DNA of 64,000 bases from Vezdaea acicularis (lineage: Eukaryota). The notes beneath the pieces are model-generated. The model was given only the letters and a program-made list of their open reading frames with translations, was not told the DNA's origin and searched no databases. The stretch lies in assembly GCA_026025075.1 (NCBI GenBank), contig JAPEUI010000013.1:124001-188000 (forward strand), written 5' to 3'. Below, piece by piece: positions 50,349 to 63,491 of this stretch; within the stretch, counting starts at the first letter, position 1; the number at the start of each line of letters is the position of its first letter. A program made the translations under genes and the position numbers.

Positions 50349-53300
50349 ATGAGTGCTGACCCCTCGCATCGAGAAGCCGCTGGCGGCTGGCCTCCTGGCC
50401 CGTCTCATAACGTCCCCTTCGTTCCAGACGACCCTTCGACGCGACAAGACCCTGTGCCACGACCGCTCGACGACTCCGATACTCCTCGCCCTACGAGACG
50501 TCCAAGAGCCTTGACGAATACCGTGTCGCCCGTACGGAGGAAACCGCTTCCTCAGACGGCCTCGCCGCTTGCCATTCAACCCTCCCCCGTAGACCCTTCT
50601 CCGATCACTCCACGTGGATCGGAGGACACTTCAAGATCTCTGTCCATTGGCGACAGTCCGACGACCTACGACACCGTGAACTCCACCGCGTGGCCGGCCT
50701 CGAGGACAATCTCATCATTGCCCTTTGTCATCAGAAATCTTGACAGGTGAGACGTCGAAATCTCGCAATGAGGCTATAATACCTCGGCTCGTTTTAAGGA
50801 GTGCCCCATATTGACGATATCTGTAACAGTCCCGCTCTGCGAGGAACTCCGCAAGTCCCGCCGACTCGTGCGCATCGAGGTGCTGCGACGGACGAGTCTA
50901 GTTCATCTCACCAGACCGATAACAGACCTGCGTTACAGCCATTGTCCCCGCGTAAGCGCATCGACACAGCTCCCAAACAGAGTCATGTACGACTGCTCAG
51001 TGACCCCACTGTAAGCACCATCGACTCTCTTGCGTCACACACAAGGGAAGAAGGCACAGCATCTCGGCCGGTCACCATGTCCTTGTACCCTTCAAAGCCG
51101 CAAAACTTGAAACTATCCTTAGATGCCGATTCACGAAGCACGTCGAATCAGTCTGATGAATCCTACGACTCAACCTCAACATCAAAACCCAAATCACCAA
51201 GCAAATTCGGCGCATTCTTCGGTTGGAAGAGTTCGTCGCCCGGCGCAAATTCTTCTACAACCTCATTCTCGGATAAAACAACTTCACCATTACCGTCGCC
51301 TCTTTCGCCTAAACCCCCCGCGGAAGAGCCTCCCTCATCTCAGCGCTCCATACCAGCTGCAATCGACACTACGAAAGCGAACACATCAGAGGACAGTCAA
51401 TACTTCACCGACTCCGGGCTTGAGATCCCTCCGATAACACCGGACAATTCGAATGAGGTGGACGAAATGGAGGACGAACTTCGACAGATCAGCTCCGAGC
51501 TGGCCTCGTCGATACGGAGGGAGATGGACCTAGAAGACCTGGTGGACCGATTACAGGCAGAAGCCAATGCGCCGCCAGGGGGAGGTAGGCGGACAAGTGA
51601 CTATTTTTCGGATTCCGGCAATAGCTCGGTGCGAGCTTTAAGCGATTCGGAATCAAAGCATGATGAGATGGAGAAGTCGCAAAGGAAAATGGAACAACAG
51701 AAAGCACAACTCCAACTAGATCTCACACAACGGGTTCAGGAAGAGAGGACAAAACGGAAAGTGCTAGAATCACAAGTGCGGTCATTAGAACAGCAAGTAC
51801 AAAGAGTCAGTCATCTCTCACTTACACTAATCGATGATTTGCTAAATGGTATGACTAGGTCGACTATGCGCAACTAAAATCATCAGGCGAGTCTGGTAGA
51901 GTAAAAGAGTTGGAGTCATCCCTTGAAGATCTCCGACGGAAACTTTCAGAAGAACGACAAGTAAAAGAGAACTTTGAAGACTTACTGACCGCATTGCGTG
52001 GAGAGATACAAGAATCTCGAAATGAACGAGATAACCTTCGCGATGAAGTAGTACCTAATCTACGAGCCCGTGTAGAAGGGCTCGAATCCGAGGCCGCTGA
52101 GTTTCAGCGACTACAATATGAGAACACCCGAATGCAACAAGACCTACAAACACTAAAGAACGAGAATAATACACTCATTACAGCCCGGAAAATGCAATTA
52201 GATCTACAGCAACAAGGCAATCGAATAAATTCGATAACCGAGGAAGGCTCTATGAAGCCAGGCTTGTCAAGGGCGAACTCCGTTGCCCGGAGCTCAATGT
52301 CCGGTAGCAGGTCAGCTGGAGGGCTAAATCGATCGGGTTCCCTGAAAGAGAGGGAATCGAGAGAATCACTTGCCGAACGGGTAAAAGACATTGAAGCTCA
52401 ACGAGACGCCCTCCACCGAGCCCTCAAAAGTCTACTTGAACGACAGGAACATCAAAACCGCGAAAACCAAAAGCGAATAAGGACGCTTGAGGAAGAGAAG
52501 AAGCGATTGCAGGAAGGGAACCCCAAGCGCATGGGTTACGACCGTGAAGTCTCGCGTCTACGTGAAGAAATCAACCACCTCAGACGACGAGCGGACGAAG
52601 CTTTAGAACAGAAGTGGCAATGCGAAAAGGGGCTCAGTGGGCTGAAGATGGATCTTGACCGTGCGGAGCAAGAAACCGCATCCCTCCGAACACTTCTTCA
52701 AGAGCACGACATCTTGGTCCCCGACCTGAATCTGACTAAGTCTGGCCCAGAAATTCAGATCAATGGTATGACAACTTCTGCCTCGCTCGAGAAAGCGTAT
52801 CAAGAACTACGCGCAACACATTCCGCTTCCTTATCAAAAATTCGAGAATTGGAGGCTCGGGGTGAGGCGGTACAGAAGGAAGCCGAGGAATATCGCATGC
52901 GTGCGGATGCTCTCCAAGATGCCGGTCAGAACCATATGTCCGAGGAGACCACGCTTGCGGGGCAACTAAGAGCTTCTGCGGCACGAGTGGAGGAGCTTGC
53001 CGTTCAAGTTCGCCAGCAACTGGCCAGCAACAATCAACTCAGGGAGCGATTGGCCGATGCCGTACGGAGGGGAGATAGGGACCAGAAGGCGTCCGCGTCC
53101 AAGATCACCCAATTACAAGCCCGTCTAAAGACACTCGAAGACGAGGTCACGTCTGCCCAAAACGCATCTGAGGATATGATCTCGAAGCATGAGGAGGAGA
53201 TCCGTGTCCTGAAAGAGAGTCACAATGCGCAACTCCAGCGAATGAAAGCTGGAATGAAGTCCGTTCAGCCTGTGCCCAACCCGGCTCTCTCGCCGCTCTT

Positions 53301-53580
53301 CACCAATCGTACACCCAAGATTGATAAAACTACTTCAGGCAACGGCGTAAGTATCAACGAGGCGAGCAGAGCAGATGTCCTGCAGAAGAGAGTCGAAGAG
53401 CTCGAGAAGGCGTTGGCGAACGCCGACAAGGAGATGGAGGAAGTGGTGGGCCGCATGAGTAAGGCCCAGATGGAGGTCATGGAGCTGCAGTCGGAGCGCG
53501 ACGAGGCCATGCGCGCGACTCGGAAGCTGCAACAGTTAGCACGAGAAGCCGACAGCGACGCTAAGGCGTTGATTAAGTAG
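50349..53580 (+). CDS. Large coiled-coil protein with S/P-rich disordered N-terminus (conserved fungal, function unknown)
   Basis: Three joinable ORFs (50349-~50746, 50800-51806, 51859-53580) with GT-AG introns; SELASSIRREMDLEDLVDRLQ and ~600 aa of heptad-rich sequence. Confidence 0.8.
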
Positions 53581-54741
53581 GAACGATCAAGTAATATTCA
53601 AGGAAGAGAAAGTAAAAGAGCAGAAGAAAGAGAAGCGCGTGCGGAGACGAGGAGACGGAAAGGATCTATCAGCATTGCACCGGTGCCTTTTTCTTGAAAT
53701 CATTTTTGAATTCCCGGGGGGCCGGCTTTCAGCGAAACTTTTGCATTTACACCAGGCGCGCTCGGAAGATCAGAGACCACTGGGGGCGAGGGGGGGGGGA
53801 ATGTTTACGGCATGGGCTATCTATTCTTCTTTTTTTAACTCTAATCACTTTCGGGCGTATCACTGCTTCTCTTACTCCTCCTTCCCCCCAAACCCTTTTT
53901 CTTGGTGTTGTTGGCTAGCGCACTCGCAGCTGTCGATTATTACCTTCTTCCTTTTTTTGCGCACGGAGCATTTTAATGTATCTATGGAACGCGGAGTTCT
54001 GATATGCCCTTTTCGCCTAAATTATTGGCCGGGCACGAGATAAACCATAATCTAATGGATCTTAATCATCTGCACTCTGGGCCCTTGGTAGCTCGCTCTT
54101 TTTCTTTCTGGCGCCGCTCCTAAAGGCGGATGGGATGCTATTTTCCGCCTTATGTTCTCTCTGCGAAGGATCAATAGTGATCATCTACCTACTCTTATCC
54201 ACGGCGCTAATGATTCATCTCTAGCGTGTCTTCTGGGATTCCGCCGTTCCAGCTTTTTTCCTGGCGTGGTCCTACTCTGCCAGGTCGGAGAAATACCTCA
54301 TACCTCACGTCCCCTCGGGAATTGACAATAGACCACTTTCCTTCCAGAACATGGTGCATCAGAGTCACGCATGGCTGGATGACCTTTGTCAGGGGTCCCG
54401 ATCCTCTATCTGTAGCTTCTTTCACGCAGCCTTTTTCTTCTTAAGAGGGTTCGCTTTTACTTCATGCACACACTCCTTTCTCCTTCGACTGTTATTTCGA
54501 TCAGTCGGTATTGCTTTCATGTCCGTACTGCGCTCTTGTCCTGATGCGTTTGGGATCAGTGGCGACTGCTTGAGAAAGGAGATAAGGCCCTTTTGTGACG
54601 AGCGATATACGGAAATACGGCGTAGGGAGACTTGAATCAGCATCGCCCCGCAATCACGTCTTCGGCACTTGATTGTCTATCCAGAAGAGCTCTTTCTCTC
54701 GACACCTTTGCGATAGCTGTCTCAACCCACGCTTACCAAGA

Positions 54742-55593
54742 ATGTCGGAATCCCCACTTCGACAGAAAGCGGATAGAACTCGCACACCACCACCACCACC
54801 ACGACGAACGCGTCTTCCACGCAGGCTCGAAGCGCGCAAGCCTCAGCAGACGCATCACGCACCCACCAACCCCCTCCTCAAGCCCCAACTCCTCTCCCAC
54901 CTCCTCTCCACCCTCACCACCCTTATCATCCTACTCCTCCCCCTACCCCTCCACGCCATCTACACTCCAACCTGTACCGGCCCCCTCCCTCCCCCCATCA
55001 CCCTCCCCAATAACGGAGTATTCTACCTAACCGGCTATCACACCCTCTCAACCCTCTGCACCGGGCACCCGGCCCAGCCCTTCGTGCCCTTTCTGCGCCT
55101 AAGCTGCATCGAACCCACCCCCGGCCTAACCAACCTGGCCTACCCCGCCGACCCGGACGGCACCGCCTGGCTTCGCCGACAACCACCCGGCGACTGGCCA
55201 CTCTGGCTCGGTGAGGGTATGCTGTGTTACCGCCCCCCGCCCTATTGGGGCGAGATGACGCCTGGGACGATCACGTGGCTTGTGGTGACGCATTGTCGGC
55301 AGTATTGCACTTGTGAGAAGCAGGAGGGGAGGGAGGAGGAGGAGGAGGTGGGAAGTGTGCGGGTGGAGGACCACGAGGAGGCGGCGGAGAGGAGGGGCAG
55401 GCCTTCTAGGCGGAGGAAGTGGGATGGGACGGGGACGGAGGGTGGGGCGGGAGAGGGCGTGGATAGGACGGTTGGGGCGGTGCAGGGGACGCGGGGGCCG
55501 GTTTGTGAGGCCCGGGAGAGGAGGTGTGTTGGGCAGCGGACAAGAGGTCCCTTTGACGCGTTGGCCGGGATAGAATCCGATTCCTGGGGTTGA
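54742..55593 (+). CDS. Cys-rich, probably secreted or membrane-anchored protein, paralog 1 of the island (7-Cys module; probable premature stop)
   Basis: Hydrophobic segment LLSHLLSTLTTLIILLLPLPLHA, then YTPTC..TLCTG..VPFLRLSC..MLC..HCRQYCTC; intronless. Confidence 0.65.
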   Translation: MSESPLRQKADRTRTPPPPPRRTRLPRRLEARKPQQTHHAPTNPLLKPQLLSHLLSTLTTLIILLLPLPLHAIYTPTCTGPLPPPITLPNNGVFYLTGYHTLSTLCTGHPAQPFVPFLRLSCIEPTPGLTNLAYPADPDGTAWLRRQPPGDWPLWLGEGMLCYRPPPYWGEMTPGTITWLVVTHCRQYCTCEKQEGREEEEEVGSVRVEDHEEAAERRGRPSRRRKWDGTGTEGGAGEGVDRTVGAVQGTRGPVCEARERRCVGQRTRGPFDALAGIESDSWG

Positions 55594-55839
55594 TGCAGGG
55601 GAGTGAAAGGTTCAAAAGGGGACTTGGGTTAGTGAAACGCGTATTTCTACAGGTATGCTACAAGTTACGTGCTGGAAACCGTATCTATCGACGAATCGCC
55701 AGTTGTTGTGCTAATGAGACATGAGAGGTTTCAGTCCAGTCTAGTCTTCCATCACCGAAAAAGGGAATACAGAGGAAGCAGTCTCCGTTTTTCCATCCAG
55801 GGGTCCTACACGCCGCAACAACCCCCACTCTCCTCCCCG

Positions 55840-56988
55840 TCACTTGATCAAACTCCCTAACCCCCCCATCCACAGCTCCGGCGCCTCATAGACCAGCCCA
55901 TCACGCGCCCCGCAGCACGCCGCGCTGACATATGTGCTGTTGCAAGTACACGCATCAAATAGCGTCCCCTGCTCCTCCACCAGCCCATCTCTCTTCCCGA
56001 ACGGCCCCTTCGGGCCTCCCTTCAGATTGTTCTGCATGCACCGCCCGGTCGCCGCCCACTGCAGTGCGCCACGGAGCGCATCCCTCAGCTGCGCCGCGGT
56101 GATGGGCCTCCTGCGGTTCCTCCCGGGGATGATGGGTACCGCCTGACAAGCCATATCTCCGCAGCCGGCGCCGTTATTATTGCCTCCATTGCCACCGCTA
56201 CTCCCACTTGCGCCACCCGCCCCGAAATTACTCGTGCTGACGCTCATGCAGTCGCTGTTGCTGTGGCACGGCCGGCTCGTACACCTCCCGCTGACGATGT
56301 TGTTGACGTAGACGGGCCCCTCCAGCCAGGCGCGCAACTCGGCGCGCTCGCGCGCGATGCTCGCCGCTGAGCTGATGGTGGAACCGGTGCCATAGGCCTG
56401 GGCGACGGCGGCGCCGGCGCCGTTGGTGCCGGCGAAGGGCTCCCAGTCGGCGCCGTCGTCGTTCTGGGTCGGGTTGGCATCGCCCCAGATAACGCCGTCT
56501 AGCTCCTGGACGCGCTCGTTGTCGTCGTCGGCGTCGATGCTGCCCGCATGCAGCTGTAAGGGTTCCGGGCGCGGCGCGCAGCTGCAGTGGGTCTGGCAGA
56601 AGGTGAGGAGCTCGGTACTGGCATCCCAGCCCCTGGGGAGGGTGCAGCGCGGGGTCAAGAGATCGGGAGGTGCACCGGGGCATCGACACTTAAGGGAGGG
56701 GACGGATGGGTAGCGTTGCACTCCACTGGGATATTGGAGGAAAGACAGGGCGCTGCCGCGGCAAAATTCGGCGGAGCTGGTGTAGTCGAGCCATTGCCTA
56801 TAACCAGTATCGGGCCAGAGGGTTTGGTCGGTTGGAAGCTCGCCCCAGCAGATGGGACGGTAGGAGAAAGCGTCGACGAGGGCTTCGGCAACGGGGGTTG
56901 CGACGACAACAGTATGATGTGGGAGGAGGTGAGAGAGGAGCGTGAAGATGGGGAAGAGGTGACGCGGTCGAAACGAGGCTGAAGACAT
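55840..56988 (-). CDS. Secreted multi-module Cys-rich protein (~382 aa), paralog 2 of the island
   Basis: Hydrophobic N-terminus; 8-Cys module YRPIC..EFCRG..VPSLKCRC..PRC..FCQTHCSC; a 6-Cys module; a KR site; then CTCNSTYVSAACC..DGLVYEAP. Long, GC-rich, intronless ORF. Confidence 0.8.
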   Translation of the reverse strand: MSSASFRPRHLFPIFTLLSHLLPHHTVVVATPVAEALVDAFSYRPICWGELPTDQTLWPDTGYRQWLDYTSSAEFCRGSALSFLQYPSGVQRYPSVPSLKCRCPGAPPDLLTPRCTLPRGWDASTELLTFCQTHCSCAPRPEPLQLHAGSIDADDDNERVQELDGVIWGDANPTQNDDGADWEPFAGTNGAGAAVAQAYGTGSTISSAASIARERAELRAWLEGPVYVNNIVSGRCTSRPCHSNSDCMSVSTSNFGAGGASGSSGGNGGNNNGAGCGDMACQAVPIIPGRNRRRPITAAQLRDALRGALQWAATGRCMQNNLKGGPKGPFGKRDGLVEEQGTLFDACTCNSTYVSAACCGARDGLVYEAPELWMGGLGSLIK

Positions 56989-58644
56989 GATTATGGTAAG
57001 GAGAATGCTATGAACGCGATGGCAGTGATATTGGAAAAGTTGTGGGCATGGATGCGACAGTAGAACCACGGTTCGGAGCGCGTGGTGGCAGGGATGTGTA
57101 TGCAGGAGGAGGTCCAGTGTAATACGGGGGTTGGTTGATAGGAATATGAAGGCAGTTTTGTACCTAGGATGGGCAGCTCTGGATCTGCGTGAATATTTCG
57201 GCGGCCCCCCATATCCTATGATGCTGTCTGACACGAGGTTTCGGCCCGCAGAAACCTAATCGTAACAAAAACGTGGAGCCCCACGGGAAAACCGTCGATG
57301 CGGGGAAGGTCGCGAGCGGAGGTAAGTCATGCGTGGATGTTTATAGCCGCAGGGTGCCCAGAGCGTTGCGGTCAAGCTGGTGTCCGCACGCTTTCGATCG
57401 GTCCGACTTGTGATAAACTTTACCACCGAGCTCTTGTGGAGACGTACATGGTAATTAAGTCTTGGTCTAGTGCGATCATGCTTCAGTCATTTCGTCTTGT
57501 ACACAAAGCCGTTTTTGGCCGAGGTTTGCCATTTGCTGTTGGAAGCAACATCACCAACCACCTCGACTTCCTCCAGAGCATAGCCACATGTGATGGCGCT
57601 CGCTTATCGGAAGTAAGTCAAGACCTGCAACACACTTCTCCTTACTCTTTTCGCTGCGGTACTTGCGGGCCAAGTCGCGAGCAACACTATTATTTTGTTC
57701 CACCTGTCGCCCTGGCCCTTTCAATGTTCAATATGCGCTAGGTTCTGGACGTTCTGCAATTGCTCGTCAATCATTGTACCGAAGTGAGAACCGCTGAGAG
57801 AACCAGATCTCTCTTCAGCAGCTATGAGCAGGCTTCCTGAACAACAACCGATGTACGAGCATAGGGTCGAAAGGATATCGCTACGAGGGCGACTGTTATT
57901 GGATGCGCTGTAGGAATTGGTGGGTGAAGGCTCGAGAATCTTAGGCCCTTGTTTTCTGCTTCAACAGAAAGTTGCGCCTTGATTATTTCTTAGCTGCGCA
58001 GATCCTTGGATATGACGAAACGCTAGGATATATCTAAGGAACAAAATTCTGTGTCCGATGGGGCGCCCTCAAGAAGTATGAAGGTAGGTCGAGATCGGGA
58101 GCGTTGCAGTAGATGAGCATCCTTCGATGGCCCATGGGCGCGTACTACGATGGCCTGTATTGCCGAGGGTAACGTAGGCCGAAAACGACAAGAAAGGGTA
58201 AGCTTCTTGAAACCGGTCTCGGCCTCAGCTTTAGAAACTAGTTTGAAGTCTAGACTTCAAGAGAGAGATGAGAGCAAGCTCGGACGAGGATGCGCATGGA
58301 ATTCACCATAGGCATAACTCAAATGCTGCCGATAGATTTACTTAGCATGGCAATGTCCGTTGGATAATTTGGTAACGGAGTCTGAGCTTTGAGCTTTTGT
58401 CGGCGAAACCATTGAAATTGAGCGTAATCTAGAAGGCTAGGCATAGGTTGGCTGGTCCTGCGCGAATTTGGCCTTGCTGATACAAGGACGGCCTTGTCTC
58501 AGTGCACGTATCCTTCTAGCGACCCTCGATTCGGCTTTCGCGACCTTTGGTCACAATATCGGAAGCTTGACGGTATATTCTTGGTACTGGAGAGACACCT
58601 CGACCAGCAGGGGAACTCTGGACTTAAGTAATTGCTGACGTATA

Positions 58645-59241
58645 ATGCGACAACTACTGCTTCTCTTCACTATTGGATTCCATTGCTGGCTCGTCAGCAG
58701 CGGAGGAACTCCCAAGTGCGAGACACGGTCGGAGGCTTGGAAGAGAGGTTACAGCTACTCAAGTTGGCCACGACTAGGGCTTGACCAAATATGCGTAGGA
58801 CCAGGTCAAGGCACTGACTACCCATCCTTGAATTGCCAGTGCAAGCCTCCTGGCCGGGATCTGCGAGAGGAACAGCTTTTATGTTATCCTGACACAACAT
58901 GGCTGCAGCCTGTCGGAGTCTACACCTACAGACTTCAGTCCTTTCTGGATCTATGCAACCAACATTGCAAATGTTGGGATGAAGAGGACAAGGATTACTG
59001 GTGGAGAAAGATAGAGGGTATAGATGACCACGGACAAGAGAGAAAGCAGAAGAGGAGGAAAAGCCGGGACCAGTCAGGAGGAAGAAAAAGATTTCGATCG
59101 GATGAGTTCATAGAGAGCGGCTTGATGGAGCTCGGTTGGGATTATAAGACATGTGAGAATACAAGGCAGCGCAAGGGACATGAATGTCAGTCTTTTCCAG
59201 CACCTTTTATGGGACATCGCACTATATCGGCAGGAAAATGA
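58645..59241 (+). CDS. Small secreted Cys-rich protein (198 aa), paralog 3 of the island
   Basis: Signal peptide MRQLLLLFTIGFHCWLVSS; 8-Cys module GTPKC..QICVG..YPSLNCQC..LLC..LCNQHCKC; basic tail. Confidence 0.75.
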   Translation: MRQLLLLFTIGFHCWLVSSGGTPKCETRSEAWKRGYSYSSWPRLGLDQICVGPGQGTDYPSLNCQCKPPGRDLREEQLLCYPDTTWLQPVGVYTYRLQSFLDLCNQHCKCWDEEDKDYWWRKIEGIDDHGQERKQKRRKSRDQSGGRKRFRSDEFIESGLMELGWDYKTCENTRQRKGHECQSFPAPFMGHRTISAGK

Positions 59242-59837
59242 AAGAGGCCTACCTAGACAAAGATTTTTGCCTAGGGAGGAGCCTGAAATTAAGAAGCATA
59301 TAACAGCAGGAACTTTGCTTTGGTAGGGCGGAAAGGCTTCGAGATGTATCGGCTTTGGAAGGGCTTCTCGTCCTCTGGACTGAAAAACGCATAAAACGGT
59401 CAGCGTCGCCGAGGGAAGATCACTACTGGATCAAGAGTAATAACGATATGAGGCGAGATCTAATGACCATTAATGGGACATCTGATAGTACTGGAGACCC
59501 TCAGTACTTCCTGTTGAGATGTTCATCCACAACGAGACAGGCCGTATATGAAGTTGAGGTTAGGGGACTGGTTGCATCCATGTCAGGAGATACGTGGTCA
59601 GGATACTAGCGACTCGAGGAGAGGCTGTGCCTGAAAGACCGAGTGATTTCGTTAGACATAGAAATACCAGAAGGTTCGTTTAAATTTAGAGGGAACACGT
59701 TTCGCCCGAATATTCAATGGGAACGTGAACCGTCTTCCTTATTTTTGTTGGTCTATCAGAAGGAACTTGCCGTTTCATTGCAGCAGCAGTGATGCAATTG
59801 CAAGTTATCAGAGGAGAATGTTGTCCATGCGCTTCGT

Positions 59838-61107
59838 TTAAATATCATGCATATCTTCATCTTTGTCCGCAGCGTTCTCATCATCTTCCCACTCTTCACC
59901 ATCAAGTTCGTCCGCATCTTCGTCAAACTCATCTGCCGCATCTGAGTCCCCGAGAGCTTCACCTAACTCGCCGACGAGCTCCGTAGCATGGAGCTTAAGT
60001 TTTTCATCCTCATATTCTAGCAACTCATATATTTTCAGGCTGTTTTGGAGCCACTCGCGAGCTGCAATTCGCAGTTGCCTTGCTTCTTCTGACTCCCTAT
60101 TGTGTACTGCCTTATCACCCATGAGGTAGAGGCACCAACCACCCAGATACCAAACCTCGATACTATTGTCATCTTCACCAATCAGACGTTCTAGGGTTTC
60201 GATAGCCTCATCATACATCTCGGTCTCGATAAGAAGGCGAGAAAGGCTGACGCGAGTTGGAAAATCCGGCACAGCTGGGTCTCCTGGTTGTAGCCATTTC
60301 CAGAGGTTCACACTCCTTGATAGAGCTGCCCGTGCATCGTCAAGCCTCAATTGTGATATCCTCACTGAGGCAAGCGTTTGCAGTGGCTGAGACTGATCCG
60401 GCGCGACGAGTAGAGCCTCCGATGTGAGTCTCTCACAGCGTTGCTCAGCATCCTCCTCCCACCTGTGATTTGGTGAGTGAGGCTAGTTTTTGACTGTTTG
60501 GAGTGCAAAGGACCTACGATAGATCTGTCATATACACTTCGACCATTCCGCAAAGCGCATTGGCTAATTTTTGCTTATTCTCCAATATTTCTTGGCTGTG
60601 GCCCTTTTCTCCTTGTGATTGAAAATGTCCAAGTTGCCTCCTTAGTATTTTGATCCCCTTCTCGAACCAGGCCACGCTCTCCACGCCTCCTTCTTCACAA
60701 ATTTGAGCAAGCCAGAGAAACTTTTCCGCCCCGCCACCCGCGGCTTCCGGTATCAACCCCTCCTCGTCAAGTGAAACAGCCGATAGGAAGTGCGCACGAG
60801 CCGTCGCAATATCTCCTAACTCAACGTTGATCTCGCCGAGAAGATTTATGGCGGGCAATGCCGCTAGAATAGGTACTGAAGAAGGTTGCAGAATCGAAAG
60901 GGCACGATGTGCAATTGGCAGCGCCTCCTGCGGCTGAGAAATCTGTAGGAGGGCTGTTGCCTCTGCGAGAAGGACTTCAGGTATCAACTCTGATGTTGTG
61001 GCTTTTGCGGGTTTCATGGACTTGGCGGGCGATTTAGAGAGGATTGCACTGCTGAGTGTGGGTTTATCACGCCTCTTTGAGCGTTTGCTGCTTTTAGTCT
61101 TCGCCAT
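59838..61107 (-). CDS. ACL4: TPR protein Acl4, assembly chaperone of ribosomal protein uL4
   Basis: GGAEKFLWLAQICEEGG, EVYMTDLS|WEEDAEQRCE, LQTLASVRISQ and EVWYLGGWC, plus an acidic tail; intron ~60517-60463. Confidence 0.88.
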
Positions 61108-62210: not shown

Positions 62211-63491
62211 CTAAGGCTCACTGAAACTGTTGGTAACTTCAACAAAATCCTCCCATGAACTCCAGGCCGCTCCGCTCTCAACGGCCCATCTCGCCCGTCT
62301 AACACCTTCTTTCCACCTGCCACCTCCAGGGCCCCTTTCCTTGATTACTTCTCCCTTGATCCCTTTATTATTAAGGCTTGTGTCCGCGTCACAGACACCA
62401 GCTGTGACGAGTAAGGCAGCAGTGTTGATGAGTACAAAGTGTAGTATTGGATCGTCTGGATCCATCTCGTTCTTCAATAGTTTCTTGAGTATCATTGCGT
62501 TATTCTCCGGTGACAACCCTGGCGAGACCTCGGATAGAGGATGTTCCGGCAAACCAAAGTCAGCCGGCGACAAAGTGAAGTGAGATATCTTCCCATTGAC
62601 TAGCTGCCAGCAGAAAGTACGTCCAGCGCAACTGAGCTCATCCAAATCTTCCTCGCCACAGATAATGAGGGCCTTCTTTGATCCATTCAGTCGAAGCGCT
62701 TCTGCAAAGACTGGGCCTAGGTCGCGTCGAGCGACTCCAATGACCCTGGCTTCGATCGCGTCATCCACTGGGTTAGCTAGCGGACCAAGGAGGTTGAAGA
62801 TCGTTCTCCATCCCAACTCCTTTCGTATTGCAGCGACATACTTCATCCCCGGATGAAACATCGGAGCGAAAAGGAAGGCGTAGGTGCTCTTCTCATAAAC
62901 TTTAGGGAGAGTCTTATTTGTTATGGCCTGAAGATCTGGAGGCGTCGGTTTAATTGCACACAAGAGGTCGGCAGAGCCTGATGTTGAGGTTGAGGCGCGG
63001 TTCCCATGTTTGGCAACAAGTAGTATCGACGAAGCTAAAATGGAAGATGTTGTAGAAATATTAAAAGTATGATGATCATCCCCTCCAGTGCCAACAATAT
63101 CGCACTGTGAAGGCTATTAGCCGTGGGCTTTGGGGAATGGATAGGAAAGTAAATTGCCGCGAGATAGTTGACATACCAATCCGCCCTGGTACAGTCCTTC
63201 AGTTTTGCGCCTACTCTTCAGTACCTTGTCTAGCTCTTGATAATCTACGAGAGACGCAGCATCTCTCATTTCCCTGGCACATTTGTAGATAACATCTGCC
63301 CTTCTGTCCCAGCCTGTGAAATGCAAACATGTCAGCAGGGCTCCGGTCTGAACAGGTGAAAGCTGGTTCGTGAATATCCGAGATATTGCCAAGGCGATCT
63401 CATCTGCAGTTACTTTCGCGTCTTCCGGTGAGGGCCATAACCGTTTGAGCAGCGGGGTTATCGAAATCTGCTGGGACTTGATTGCATCCAT
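62211..63491 (-). CDS. TRP4: Anthranilate phosphoribosyltransferase
   Basis: After intron ~63175-63105: CDIVGTGGD..FNISTTSS..KHGNRASTSTSGSADLL, FLFAPMFHPGM, RTIFNLLGPLANP and LDELS. Confidence 0.95.

Follow-up and report, generated by a model that had tools for sequence, protein, structure and literature searches.

Do three neighbouring cysteine-rich genes of the fungus Vezdaea acicularis carry one common protein module, and to what kind of protein does that module belong? The question is raised by a 64,000-nucleotide stretch of contig JAPEUI010000013.1 (positions 124,001 to 188,000 of the forward strand, assembly GCA_026025075.1), hereafter the window, whose own numbering is used for all coordinates below. 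A first-pass annotation had described three intronless genes in it, and we recovered the same open reading frames (ORFs) under the standard code: ORF1 (P0001; 54742-55593, plus strand, 283 amino acids), ORF2 (P0002; 55840-56988, minus strand, 382 amino acids in a single exon) and ORF3 (P0003; 58645-59241, plus strand, 198 amino acids). The short strings by which the three had been aligned by eye are all present in the translations, namely YTPTC, YRPIC and GTPKC; TLCTG, EFCRG and QICVG; VPFLRLSC, VPSLKCRC and YPSLNCQC; and CRQYCTC, CQTHCSC and CNQHCKC. Judged from its sequence, ORF2 is a full-length member of an undescribed family built of three modules and 18 conserved cysteines. The first of these, which we call the N-module, is the part that links ORF2 to its two neighbours.

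Results

Architecture of ORF2 and its relatives

When ORF2 was run exhaustively with phmmer against 1.84 billion representative proteins, 23 foreign sequences matched at E<=1e-3. In every one, the best-matching stretch ends between residues 370 and 380 of ORF2; for 21 of them it is confined to residues 286-380. Read at full length, many of these relatives have the same three-part order, with the cysteine pattern of the N-module behind a leader. ORF2 was aligned with 12 relatives (alignment A3) and with 75 relatives (alignment A5, 76 rows). The larger alignment shows 18 conserved cysteine columns, of which the N-module has eight, a middle module six and a C-terminal motif four. ORF2, with 18 cysteines in total, aligns end to end with the 75 relatives and has a cysteine at 17 of these columns. 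Its parts follow one another as leader, eight-cysteine N-module, disordered linker, six-cysteine middle module, a G-[KR]-R-[DE] site and the C-terminal motif.

All parts of ORF2 lie on the minus strand. The protein opens with a probable signal peptide (residues 1-31, 56896-56988), which has RPRH, a hydrophobic core and VVA before TP, and in which AlphaFold2 (AF2) places a helix at residues 11-21. The N-module (residues 41-143, 56560-56868) holds C47, C76, C101, C103, C115, C131, C135 and C137. The linker behind it (residues 144-233, 56290-56559) is rich in Gly, Ala and Ser, is predicted to be disordered and is acidic, with 16 D+E against 6 K+R over residues 138-235. The middle module (residues 234-321, 56026-56289), possibly knottin-like, has the conserved cysteines C236, C241, C247, C281 and C317. 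A dibasic pair that is conserved in A5, K332-R333 (55990-55995), forms a candidate Kex2 site, and the C-terminal motif (residues 346-377, 55858-55953) reads CxCNx[TS]YVSxxCC..DG.V.E..L.LG.L and includes an NxT/S sequon.

The C-terminal end is the most recognizable signature of the family, with the consensus G-[KR]-R-[DE]-E-x-P-C-P-C-N-x-T-Y-V-S-H-x-C-C-x-x-x-D-G-L-V-W-E-x-P-x-x-K-L-G-E-L. Against a hidden Markov model (HMM) of the motif, ORF2 scored 71.8 bits and had every invariant residue. Each of the 76 rows of A5 keeps C347, C349, N350, Y353, S355, C358, C359, G364 and E368, and every row has T or S at position 352, so that the N-x-T/S sequon at N350 is invariant as well. At the dibasic site, 67 of the 76 rows have K or R at residue 332, 69 have R at 333 and 55 have D or E at 334. 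When 133 proteins were examined, the motif was found by regular expression in 128, the N-module at E<=1e-3 in 86 and both in 82; of the 128 motif proteins, 101 had a dibasic pair no more than 25 residues before the motif.

The C-terminal motif is also found in other architectures, among them a non-terminal CPCNCTYVS variant that runs into a further cysteine-containing tail, and some proteins have two copies of the motif or two N-modules (loci L001, L007, L011, L013, L016, L020, L022 and L024; proteins P0004, P0005, P0008, P0020 and P0023). The superfamily marked by this motif is wider than the three-module form.

The N-module in the three ORFs

The shared unit had been put at about 100 amino acids. 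Such a module is real, but it is just the first of three, and among the three ORFs the whole set is present in ORF2 only. Its cysteines are spaced as C-x(25-30)-C-x(20-25)-CxC-x(8-12)-C-x(15-40)-CxxxCxC, with no CC pair. Among 110 aligned N-modules, 67 have all eight cysteines and 21 lack the third and the fifth together, a joint loss that points to a disulfide between C3 and C5 and to a natural six-cysteine subtype. Examples of the six-cysteine form are P0010, P0017 and P0019. The loops between the cysteines had been called very different, in agreement with the 20-32% identity of the relatives to ORF2 (n=75).

Pairwise BLASTP gave E values of 0.001 for ORF1 with ORF2, 0.012 for ORF1 with ORF3 and 0.12 for ORF2 with ORF3; the match of ORF1 to ORF2 includes LLSHLL, which is common to the hydrophobic stretches of both. 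Smith-Waterman comparison of the modules, with 2000 composition-preserving shuffles as the null, gave z scores of 4.8 (equalled by 0 of the 2000), 2.8 (by 44) and 3.05 (by 27). When the three window modules were aligned by themselves with MAFFT (alignment A2), the central cysteines were misaligned. The HMM of the three sequences that had been suggested was therefore replaced by HMMs built from foreign proteins only, without any sequence of the window.

With an HMM of 12 foreign N-modules, ORF2 scored 28.6 bits, ORF3 20.6 bits and ORF1 4.1 bits, where the best of 1000 shuffles of each reached 8.9, 9.4 and 7.7 bits, respectively. With an HMM of 87 foreign N-modules the scores were 27.6 bits for ORF2, 25.3 for ORF3 and 10.6 for ORF1, against best shuffles of 12.4, 14.1 and 9.6 bits. 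When the whole 64 kb was scanned in six frames, the top three segments were ORF2 (E 5e-7), ORF3 (E 2e-6) and ORF1 (E 0.062). Aligned by hhalign with the 76-row family profile, ORF3 matched at 95.5% probability (E 1.4e-8) over 88 columns; ORF1 matched at 68% over 19 columns only, which comprise CxxxCxC and an acidic stretch. Of the common cysteine scaffold claimed for three paralogs, then, the part that concerns ORF2 and ORF3 holds, and by these profile comparisons the two clearly share a real module. ORF1 scores just above chance and is probably a marginal, degenerate relative, a judgement for which its BLASTP match to ORF2 and its adjoining position also count.

Shortened members and leaders

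ORF1 and ORF3 have the same layout: an N-module, an acidic and then a basic stretch, two cysteines that align to the start of the middle module, and a stop. The HMM of the C-terminal motif found no copy of it near ORF1 or ORF3 in any of the six frames. In their sequences the two are truncated forms of the family.

The N-module of ORF3 (residues 21-112, 58705-58980, plus strand) has its eight cysteines at C25, C50, C64, C66, C80, C104, C108 and C110. It follows a hydrophobic core at residues 4-13, with a mean of 2.1 on the Kyte-Doolittle (KD) hydropathy scale, and is followed by an acidic-then-basic tail in which C170 and C181 fall on cysteine columns of the middle module. From this layout, ORF3 looks like a secreted protein made of the N-module only.

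In ORF1, the hydrophobic segment is a helix at residues 48-68 (54883-54945, plus strand), internal to the protein and preceded by a basic, Pro-rich head of 47 residues. The best 19-residue hydropathy window (2.03) begins at residue 50 and no window is hydrophobic in the first 40 residues; the AF2 model has a helix at 48-65 with block means of the predicted local distance difference test (pLDDT) of up to 94. We suggest that this segment may be a signal anchor rather than a cleaved leader. The N-module of ORF1 (residues 74-193, 54961-55320, plus strand) contains C78, C106, C122, C162, C185, C189 and C191. MAFFT places cysteines on seven of the eight N-module columns, with one cysteine of the CxC lost and an insert of about 35 residues, and the cysteine pattern given by hmmalign, CC.C.CCC, is the pattern of 15 foreign six-cysteine modules. 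As read from its sequence, ORF1 looks membrane-tethered or decaying.

A hydrophobic leader had been attributed to all three proteins. Leaders were judged here by crude hydropathy, by reading of the sequence and by AF2 only, and on these grounds the attribution is plausible for ORF3, which has a good hydrophobic core, and for ORF2, while in ORF1 the stretch is internal (about 48-68). Secretion is accordingly plausible for ORF3 and ORF2 and doubtful for ORF1. The consensus C-termini of the family are acidic (KLGEL followed by acidic residues) and have no hydrophobic C-terminal signal for a glycosylphosphatidylinositol (GPI) anchor.

Predicted structure

The AF2 model of ORF2, made on the 76-row alignment, has a mean pLDDT of 63 and a predicted template modelling score (pTM) of 0.42. 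Confidence is uneven along the chain: 10-residue block means are 75-91 in the N-module (41-143), except for a loop at 82-86, and 71-87 in the C-terminal motif, while pLDDT is below 50 in the linker at 144-206 and 217-233 and, around K332-R333, at 325-329 and 331-342. The ORF1 model, which leans on the supplied family alignment, repeats the ORF2 order of elements (strand-helix-strand-strand-helix-strand) around the aligned cysteines.

The first-pass annotation had recognized no named domain and had set the spacing apart from that of hydrophobin, CFEM, LysM and cerato-platanin; in line with this, the three ORFs matched no Pfam family at E<=1. For 21 relatives, no Pfam match was above the gathering cut-offs, and the three sub-threshold matches (E<=0.1) were chance matches to unrelated families. 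A search of PDB sequences with the family profile gave nothing at E<=1, and Foldseek, which had been proposed at the outset, returned no PDB rows at E<=10 with either of the two models. Of 48,161 chains compared by VIA-align, four reached Z>=2, the best at 2.5; the one suggestive match was 2hlg, a tomato peptide of 39 residues, superposed on the middle module at a weak, noise-level Z of 2.4 (root-mean-square deviation 2.4, 39 residues, 23% identity). The ESM Atlas gave no usable match for ORF3 or ORF2. In these searches the models match no known fold, which does not by itself prove a new one.

Distribution of the family

A profile of the C-terminal motif, run through a word index, matched at least 139 clusters (90% identity) at E<=0.01 among 8000 scored candidates. 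For 120 listed clusters there was no precomputed Pfam domain, and all names given were "hypothetical protein". Searched through the same index, ORF2 alone retrieved itself, and A3 retrieved itself and one protein; low-complexity words swamped both searches, and their outcome is no evidence of absence. That the family is private to the three genes of the window was considered and is ruled out by the motif clusters and by the N-module in 86 of 133 proteins.

Among the matches listed, all 20 organism-named rows come from six lichen-forming species: seven from Chrysothrix sp., four each from Vezdaea aestivalis and Caeruleum heppii, three from Vezdaea acicularis, and one each from Chaenotheca gracillima and Thelocarpon superellum. 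Cluster look-ups added Stereocaulon virgatum as a seventh species and two further proteins of Caeruleum heppii. There are several paralogs per genome, at least seven in the Chrysothrix metagenome-assembled genome and at least six in Caeruleum. NCBI taxonomy places Chrysothrix in Arthoniomycetes and Chaenotheca in Coniocybomycetes and leaves Vezdaea incertae sedis, and the named taxa span at least three classes. All organism-named relatives being lichen-forming fungi is compatible with a link to symbiosis, and we regard a restriction of the family to lichens as a well-founded lead, not a result.

A literature search for the C-terminal motif or the family found no description of either. In the available portions of two lichen secretome studies, clusters of 'novel' unannotated secreted proteins and many lineage-specific small secreted proteins are described (bioRxiv 10.1101/2024.08.16.608140; PMC9232553), and the available part of the comparative study reports a single lichen-specific core orthogroup across six species (PMC9232553).

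The locus, its strains and its origin

The three genes had been described as an island amid housekeeping genes, and their flanks are indeed conserved gene types. Upstream lies a gene for a DUF7603 coiled-coil protein (52132-53580). Downstream are a TPR protein gene on the minus strand (59838-61107) and a gene for a Glycos_transf_3 protein (62211-62861). The TPR gene is in two ORF pieces (59838-60218 and 60514-61107), a split that fits an intron. The first-pass annotation had labelled it ACL4; the TPR matches that bear on this label are sub-threshold. The spacer between ORF2 and ORF3 (56989-58644, 1.65 kb) contains an ORF of 147 codons (57298-57741, plus strand), in which we found no Pfam match and no signal of the family.

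ORF1 and ORF2 have a GC content of about 65%, with GC at third codon positions (GC3) of 0.72 and 0.77, respectively, and at second positions (GC2) of 0.57 in both, which is a coding-like periodicity. Seven housekeeping ORFs of the window have 47-53% GC and GC3 of 0.46-0.57. In foreign loci, genes of the family exceed the GC content of their surroundings just modestly. A codon-usage log-likelihood against the housekeeping genes of the window barely separated the frames.

The exact ORF1 and ORF2 proteins are present in NCBI nr as annotated proteins. A stretch near-identical to 54600-59400 was found in contigs of three moss-metagenome runs from one study, with traces in one soil run; the latter are two near-identical pieces of 151 and 242 bases (57208-57358 and 57764-58005) in the ORF2-ORF3 spacer. 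Contig matches below 90% identity at 56324-56547 were rejected as cross-matching of low-complexity, Gly/Ala-rich and GC-rich sequence from other organisms, with flanks unlike the window. Over 4.8 kb, a close metagenome strain differs at 16 single bases; nine of these fall in the ORFs (3 synonymous, 6 non-synonymous), a number too small for a test of selection. ORF2 has one synonymous and two non-synonymous differences (Q161E in the linker and V250A in the middle module), and ORF3 has one, which is synonymous.

It had been proposed that the genes arose by local duplication and inversion. A recent origin of this kind we could not sustain. Across 53600-59900, the DNA repeats were short low-complexity pairs only, and none links the three genes; by BLASTP, the ORF3 module is no nearer to the ORF2 module than to foreign members of the family. 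In a FastTree of 101 N-modules, the three ORFs fall in one clade of nine tips with support of 0.69, in a saturated tree with patristic distances of 4.7-6.2, which neither shows nor excludes an old local duplication. The gene cluster is either old or made of members that evolve very fast.

Discussion

We think it rather likely that ORF2 encodes a pre-pro-protein that is secreted, processed by Kex2 and active outside the cell, and that ORF3 and, less surely, ORF1 are old, highly diverged copies. The ORF2 product would enter the secretory pathway, would be stapled by up to nine disulfides, probably four of them in the N-module and including C3-C5, and would be glycosylated at the sequon. A Kex2-type convertase would cut after K332-R333. 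The variable N-terminal part and the conserved peptide at the C-terminus, about 45 residues long, would then act extracellularly, at the interface of the lichen fungus with its partner or with a competitor. All that remains in ORF3, and less surely in ORF1, would be a leader with its N-module, the charged linker and the two cysteines that open the middle module. Membership of the family, its architecture and conservation, the lack of a domain or fold match and the taxa of the named relatives are observed; secretion, disulfides, glycosylation, Kex2 cleavage, an extracellular role and any part in symbiosis we infer. That the N-module evolves fast while the C-terminal peptide hardly varies suggests two jobs, one with a variable and one with a conserved partner. 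An extracellular role at the interface of the fungus and its partner is the one we favour, with effector, signal, antimicrobial and wall component not told apart. The P1 residue of a Kex2 site must be Arg and the P2 residue is preferably Lys or Arg; processing by Kex2 is common among fungal effectors, as far as the available part of the source describes (PMC8528282).

Several observations weigh against this reading, some on secretion and distribution and others on the status of ORF1 and ORF3. The hydrophobic core of ORF2 is moderate (KD 1.64), and the crude leader test was passed by no more than 77 of 126 proteins of the family, many of which are gene calls from metagenomes whose starts are uncertain. 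The KR, though conserved, may serve structure and not cleavage. A search of sequencing runs for the region matched DNA metagenomes and listed no RNA run. The lichen-only pattern rests on 8000 scored candidates and on about one quarter of the records being named. In addition, a 2025 phylogenomic study, in its available part, places Coniocybomycetes, Caeruleum, Thelocarpon and Vezdaea together in a single class, Lichinomycetes (PMC12238968); five of the seven named species (the two of Vezdaea, Thelocarpon, Caeruleum and Chaenotheca) would then belong to one lineage, and the distribution of the family may reflect lineage rather than lifestyle.

The points that concern ORF1 and ORF3 favour the idea that these two are decaying, truncated remnants and that ORF2 alone is functional, which we take as a serious possibility while leaning away from it. 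Both stop at the same point, after two cysteines of the middle module, with no C-terminal motif nearby. ORF1 lacks an N-terminal leader, has lost one cysteine of the CxC, carries its insert of about 35 residues, and is only marginally detected as an N-module at all (10.6 bits; 68% over 19 columns by hhalign). Between strains it differs by one synonymous and four non-synonymous changes, three of the latter in the tail, with the loss of a cysteine (C262Y) among them. ORF3, at 49% GC, has codon-position values of 0.52/0.47/0.49, that is, no periodicity, and its exact protein occurs only in metagenome gene calls (ENA, Logan) and not in NCBI nr. In 32 metagenome loci, many of them redundant and with flanks of up to 10 kb, the family gene stands alone with no N-module-only neighbour, so that tandem clustering is not general there; an N-module was recognizable in only 2 of the 32. 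Decay would sit poorly, however, with frames that stay open for 198 and 283 codons. ORF3 has a good candidate leader, all eight cysteines of the module and a synonymous change as its sole strain difference; the GC3 of ORF1, 0.72 against a GC2 of 0.57, is expected of a coding frame, and its cysteine pattern is that of the natural six-cysteine subtype, with 15 foreign modules. The lone genes of other loci also tell less than they seem to, because the searches ran via the C-terminal motif and N-module-only genes elsewhere were undetectable by them. That the likeness of the three ORFs arose by chance, among cysteine-rich ORFs in GC-rich DNA, strikes us as hardly credible, and it could still hold for ORF1 only. 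BLASTP is weak (E 0.001-0.12), ORF1 reaches its 10.6 bits and 19 columns and no further, and long ORFs come easily at 65% GC; an alternative frame of 151 codons lies inside ORF2. For ORF2 and ORF3 chance is refuted: on a model of foreign modules built without them, their scores exceed those of all 1000 shuffles by 13 and 11 bits. ORF2 moreover aligns end to end with 75 relatives, and no other six-frame segment of the 64 kb ranks above the three ORFs.

Two further proposals accept the family and give it another task. It might be a Kex2-matured antimicrobial or killer-type pre-pro-toxin, with disulfide-rich parts that are set free from a spacer and aimed at competing microbes, and with no part in symbiosis. 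The killer pre-pro-toxins of yeasts and Ustilago resemble its layout of leader, cysteine-rich part, disordered spacer, dibasic sites and cysteine-rich part; the middle module is weakly like a plant cystine-knot-like peptide (Z 2.4), and there are several paralogs per genome. We nevertheless hold a toxin to be improbable, as no toxin is matched by sequence or fold (Pfam, PDB) and the near-invariant C-terminal peptide suggests a conserved target and not an arms race. It might instead be a structural protein of the wall or surface of lichen hyphae, for example part of a hydrophobic layer that seals fungus and alga, and be neither effector nor signal. Lichen fungi do coat the symbiotic interface with hydrophobins, and such a layer would suit a protein rich in disulfides whose N-glycosylation sequon is invariant, whose linker is long and rich in Ser, Gly and Ala, and whose named relatives are all from lichen-forming fungi. 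To this, too, we give little credence: there is no Pfam match to hydrophobin, CFEM or other wall proteins, the consensus C-termini are acidic with no hydrophobic GPI signal, and the repeats typical of wall proteins are absent.

The reading that we prefer, a secreted and Kex2-processed ORF2 with diverged, shortened copies beside it, can be taken a step further. The near-invariant C-terminal peptide, glycosylated and with two disulfides, would then be a conserved extracellular signal or ligand of lichen fungi, released by Kex2 and addressed to the photobiont or to the fungus in the formation of the thallus. The fast-evolving N-module, made by itself as well from truncated genes such as ORF3, would tune or antagonise it; the family would occur in Lichinomycetes (as revised), Arthoniomycetes and Lecanoromycetes and be absent from non-lichenized fungi. 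We put this forward as a long shot. Little is known of the molecules with which fungus and alga build a lichen, and if the idea were true, this would be a symbiosis-linked family of peptide precursors common to distant lichenized lineages. It is a multi-copy family with a sharp sequence signature, and it offers a motif with which proteomes can be searched, a predicted cleavage site, a conserved peptide within reach of synthesis and a natural contrast of full-length and N-module-only genes. Should its distribution track lineage and not lifestyle, or its genes prove silent, it would be a further orphan family of cysteine-rich proteins.

Among known systems, the family would work most like the Kex2-processed effectors (K2PP), which resemble ORF2 in being fungal cysteine-rich proteins with a canonical KR in a disordered stretch. 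As described in the available part of the source, they lose a short, unstructured N-terminal pro-domain, (PMC8528282), whereas the site in ORF2 is near the C-terminus, between folded cysteine modules, and its cleavage would release the conserved 45-residue peptide. SnTox3 and other solved effectors have no relation in sequence or fold to the family in the PDB searches. The candidate effectors and orphan secreted proteins of lichens, so far as the available parts of these studies go, share with it that they are lichen-fungal, free of Pfam domains and, as is probable for the family, secreted (bioRxiv 10.1101/2024.08.16.608140; PMC9232553); neither Xanthoria nor the six species of PMC9232553 is among our named matches.

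Hydrophobin, CFEM, cerato-platanin and LysM proteins invite comparison because a leader is followed by eight cysteines within about 100 residues; they differ in that the ORFs have no Pfam match to them and in that the N-module of the family has a different spacing and no CC pair. The cystine-knot miniprotein 2hlg superposes with the middle module on all of its 39 residues, at a Z of 2.4 that is noise-level, and this likeness concerns the middle module only and not the scaffold first proposed for the three genes. The ORFs have no Pfam RALF match, and organism and motif differ; as an analogy of layout and not of homology, however, the RALF propeptides of plants also end in a conserved peptide, about 45-50 residues long and with four cysteines, that follows a dibasic site.

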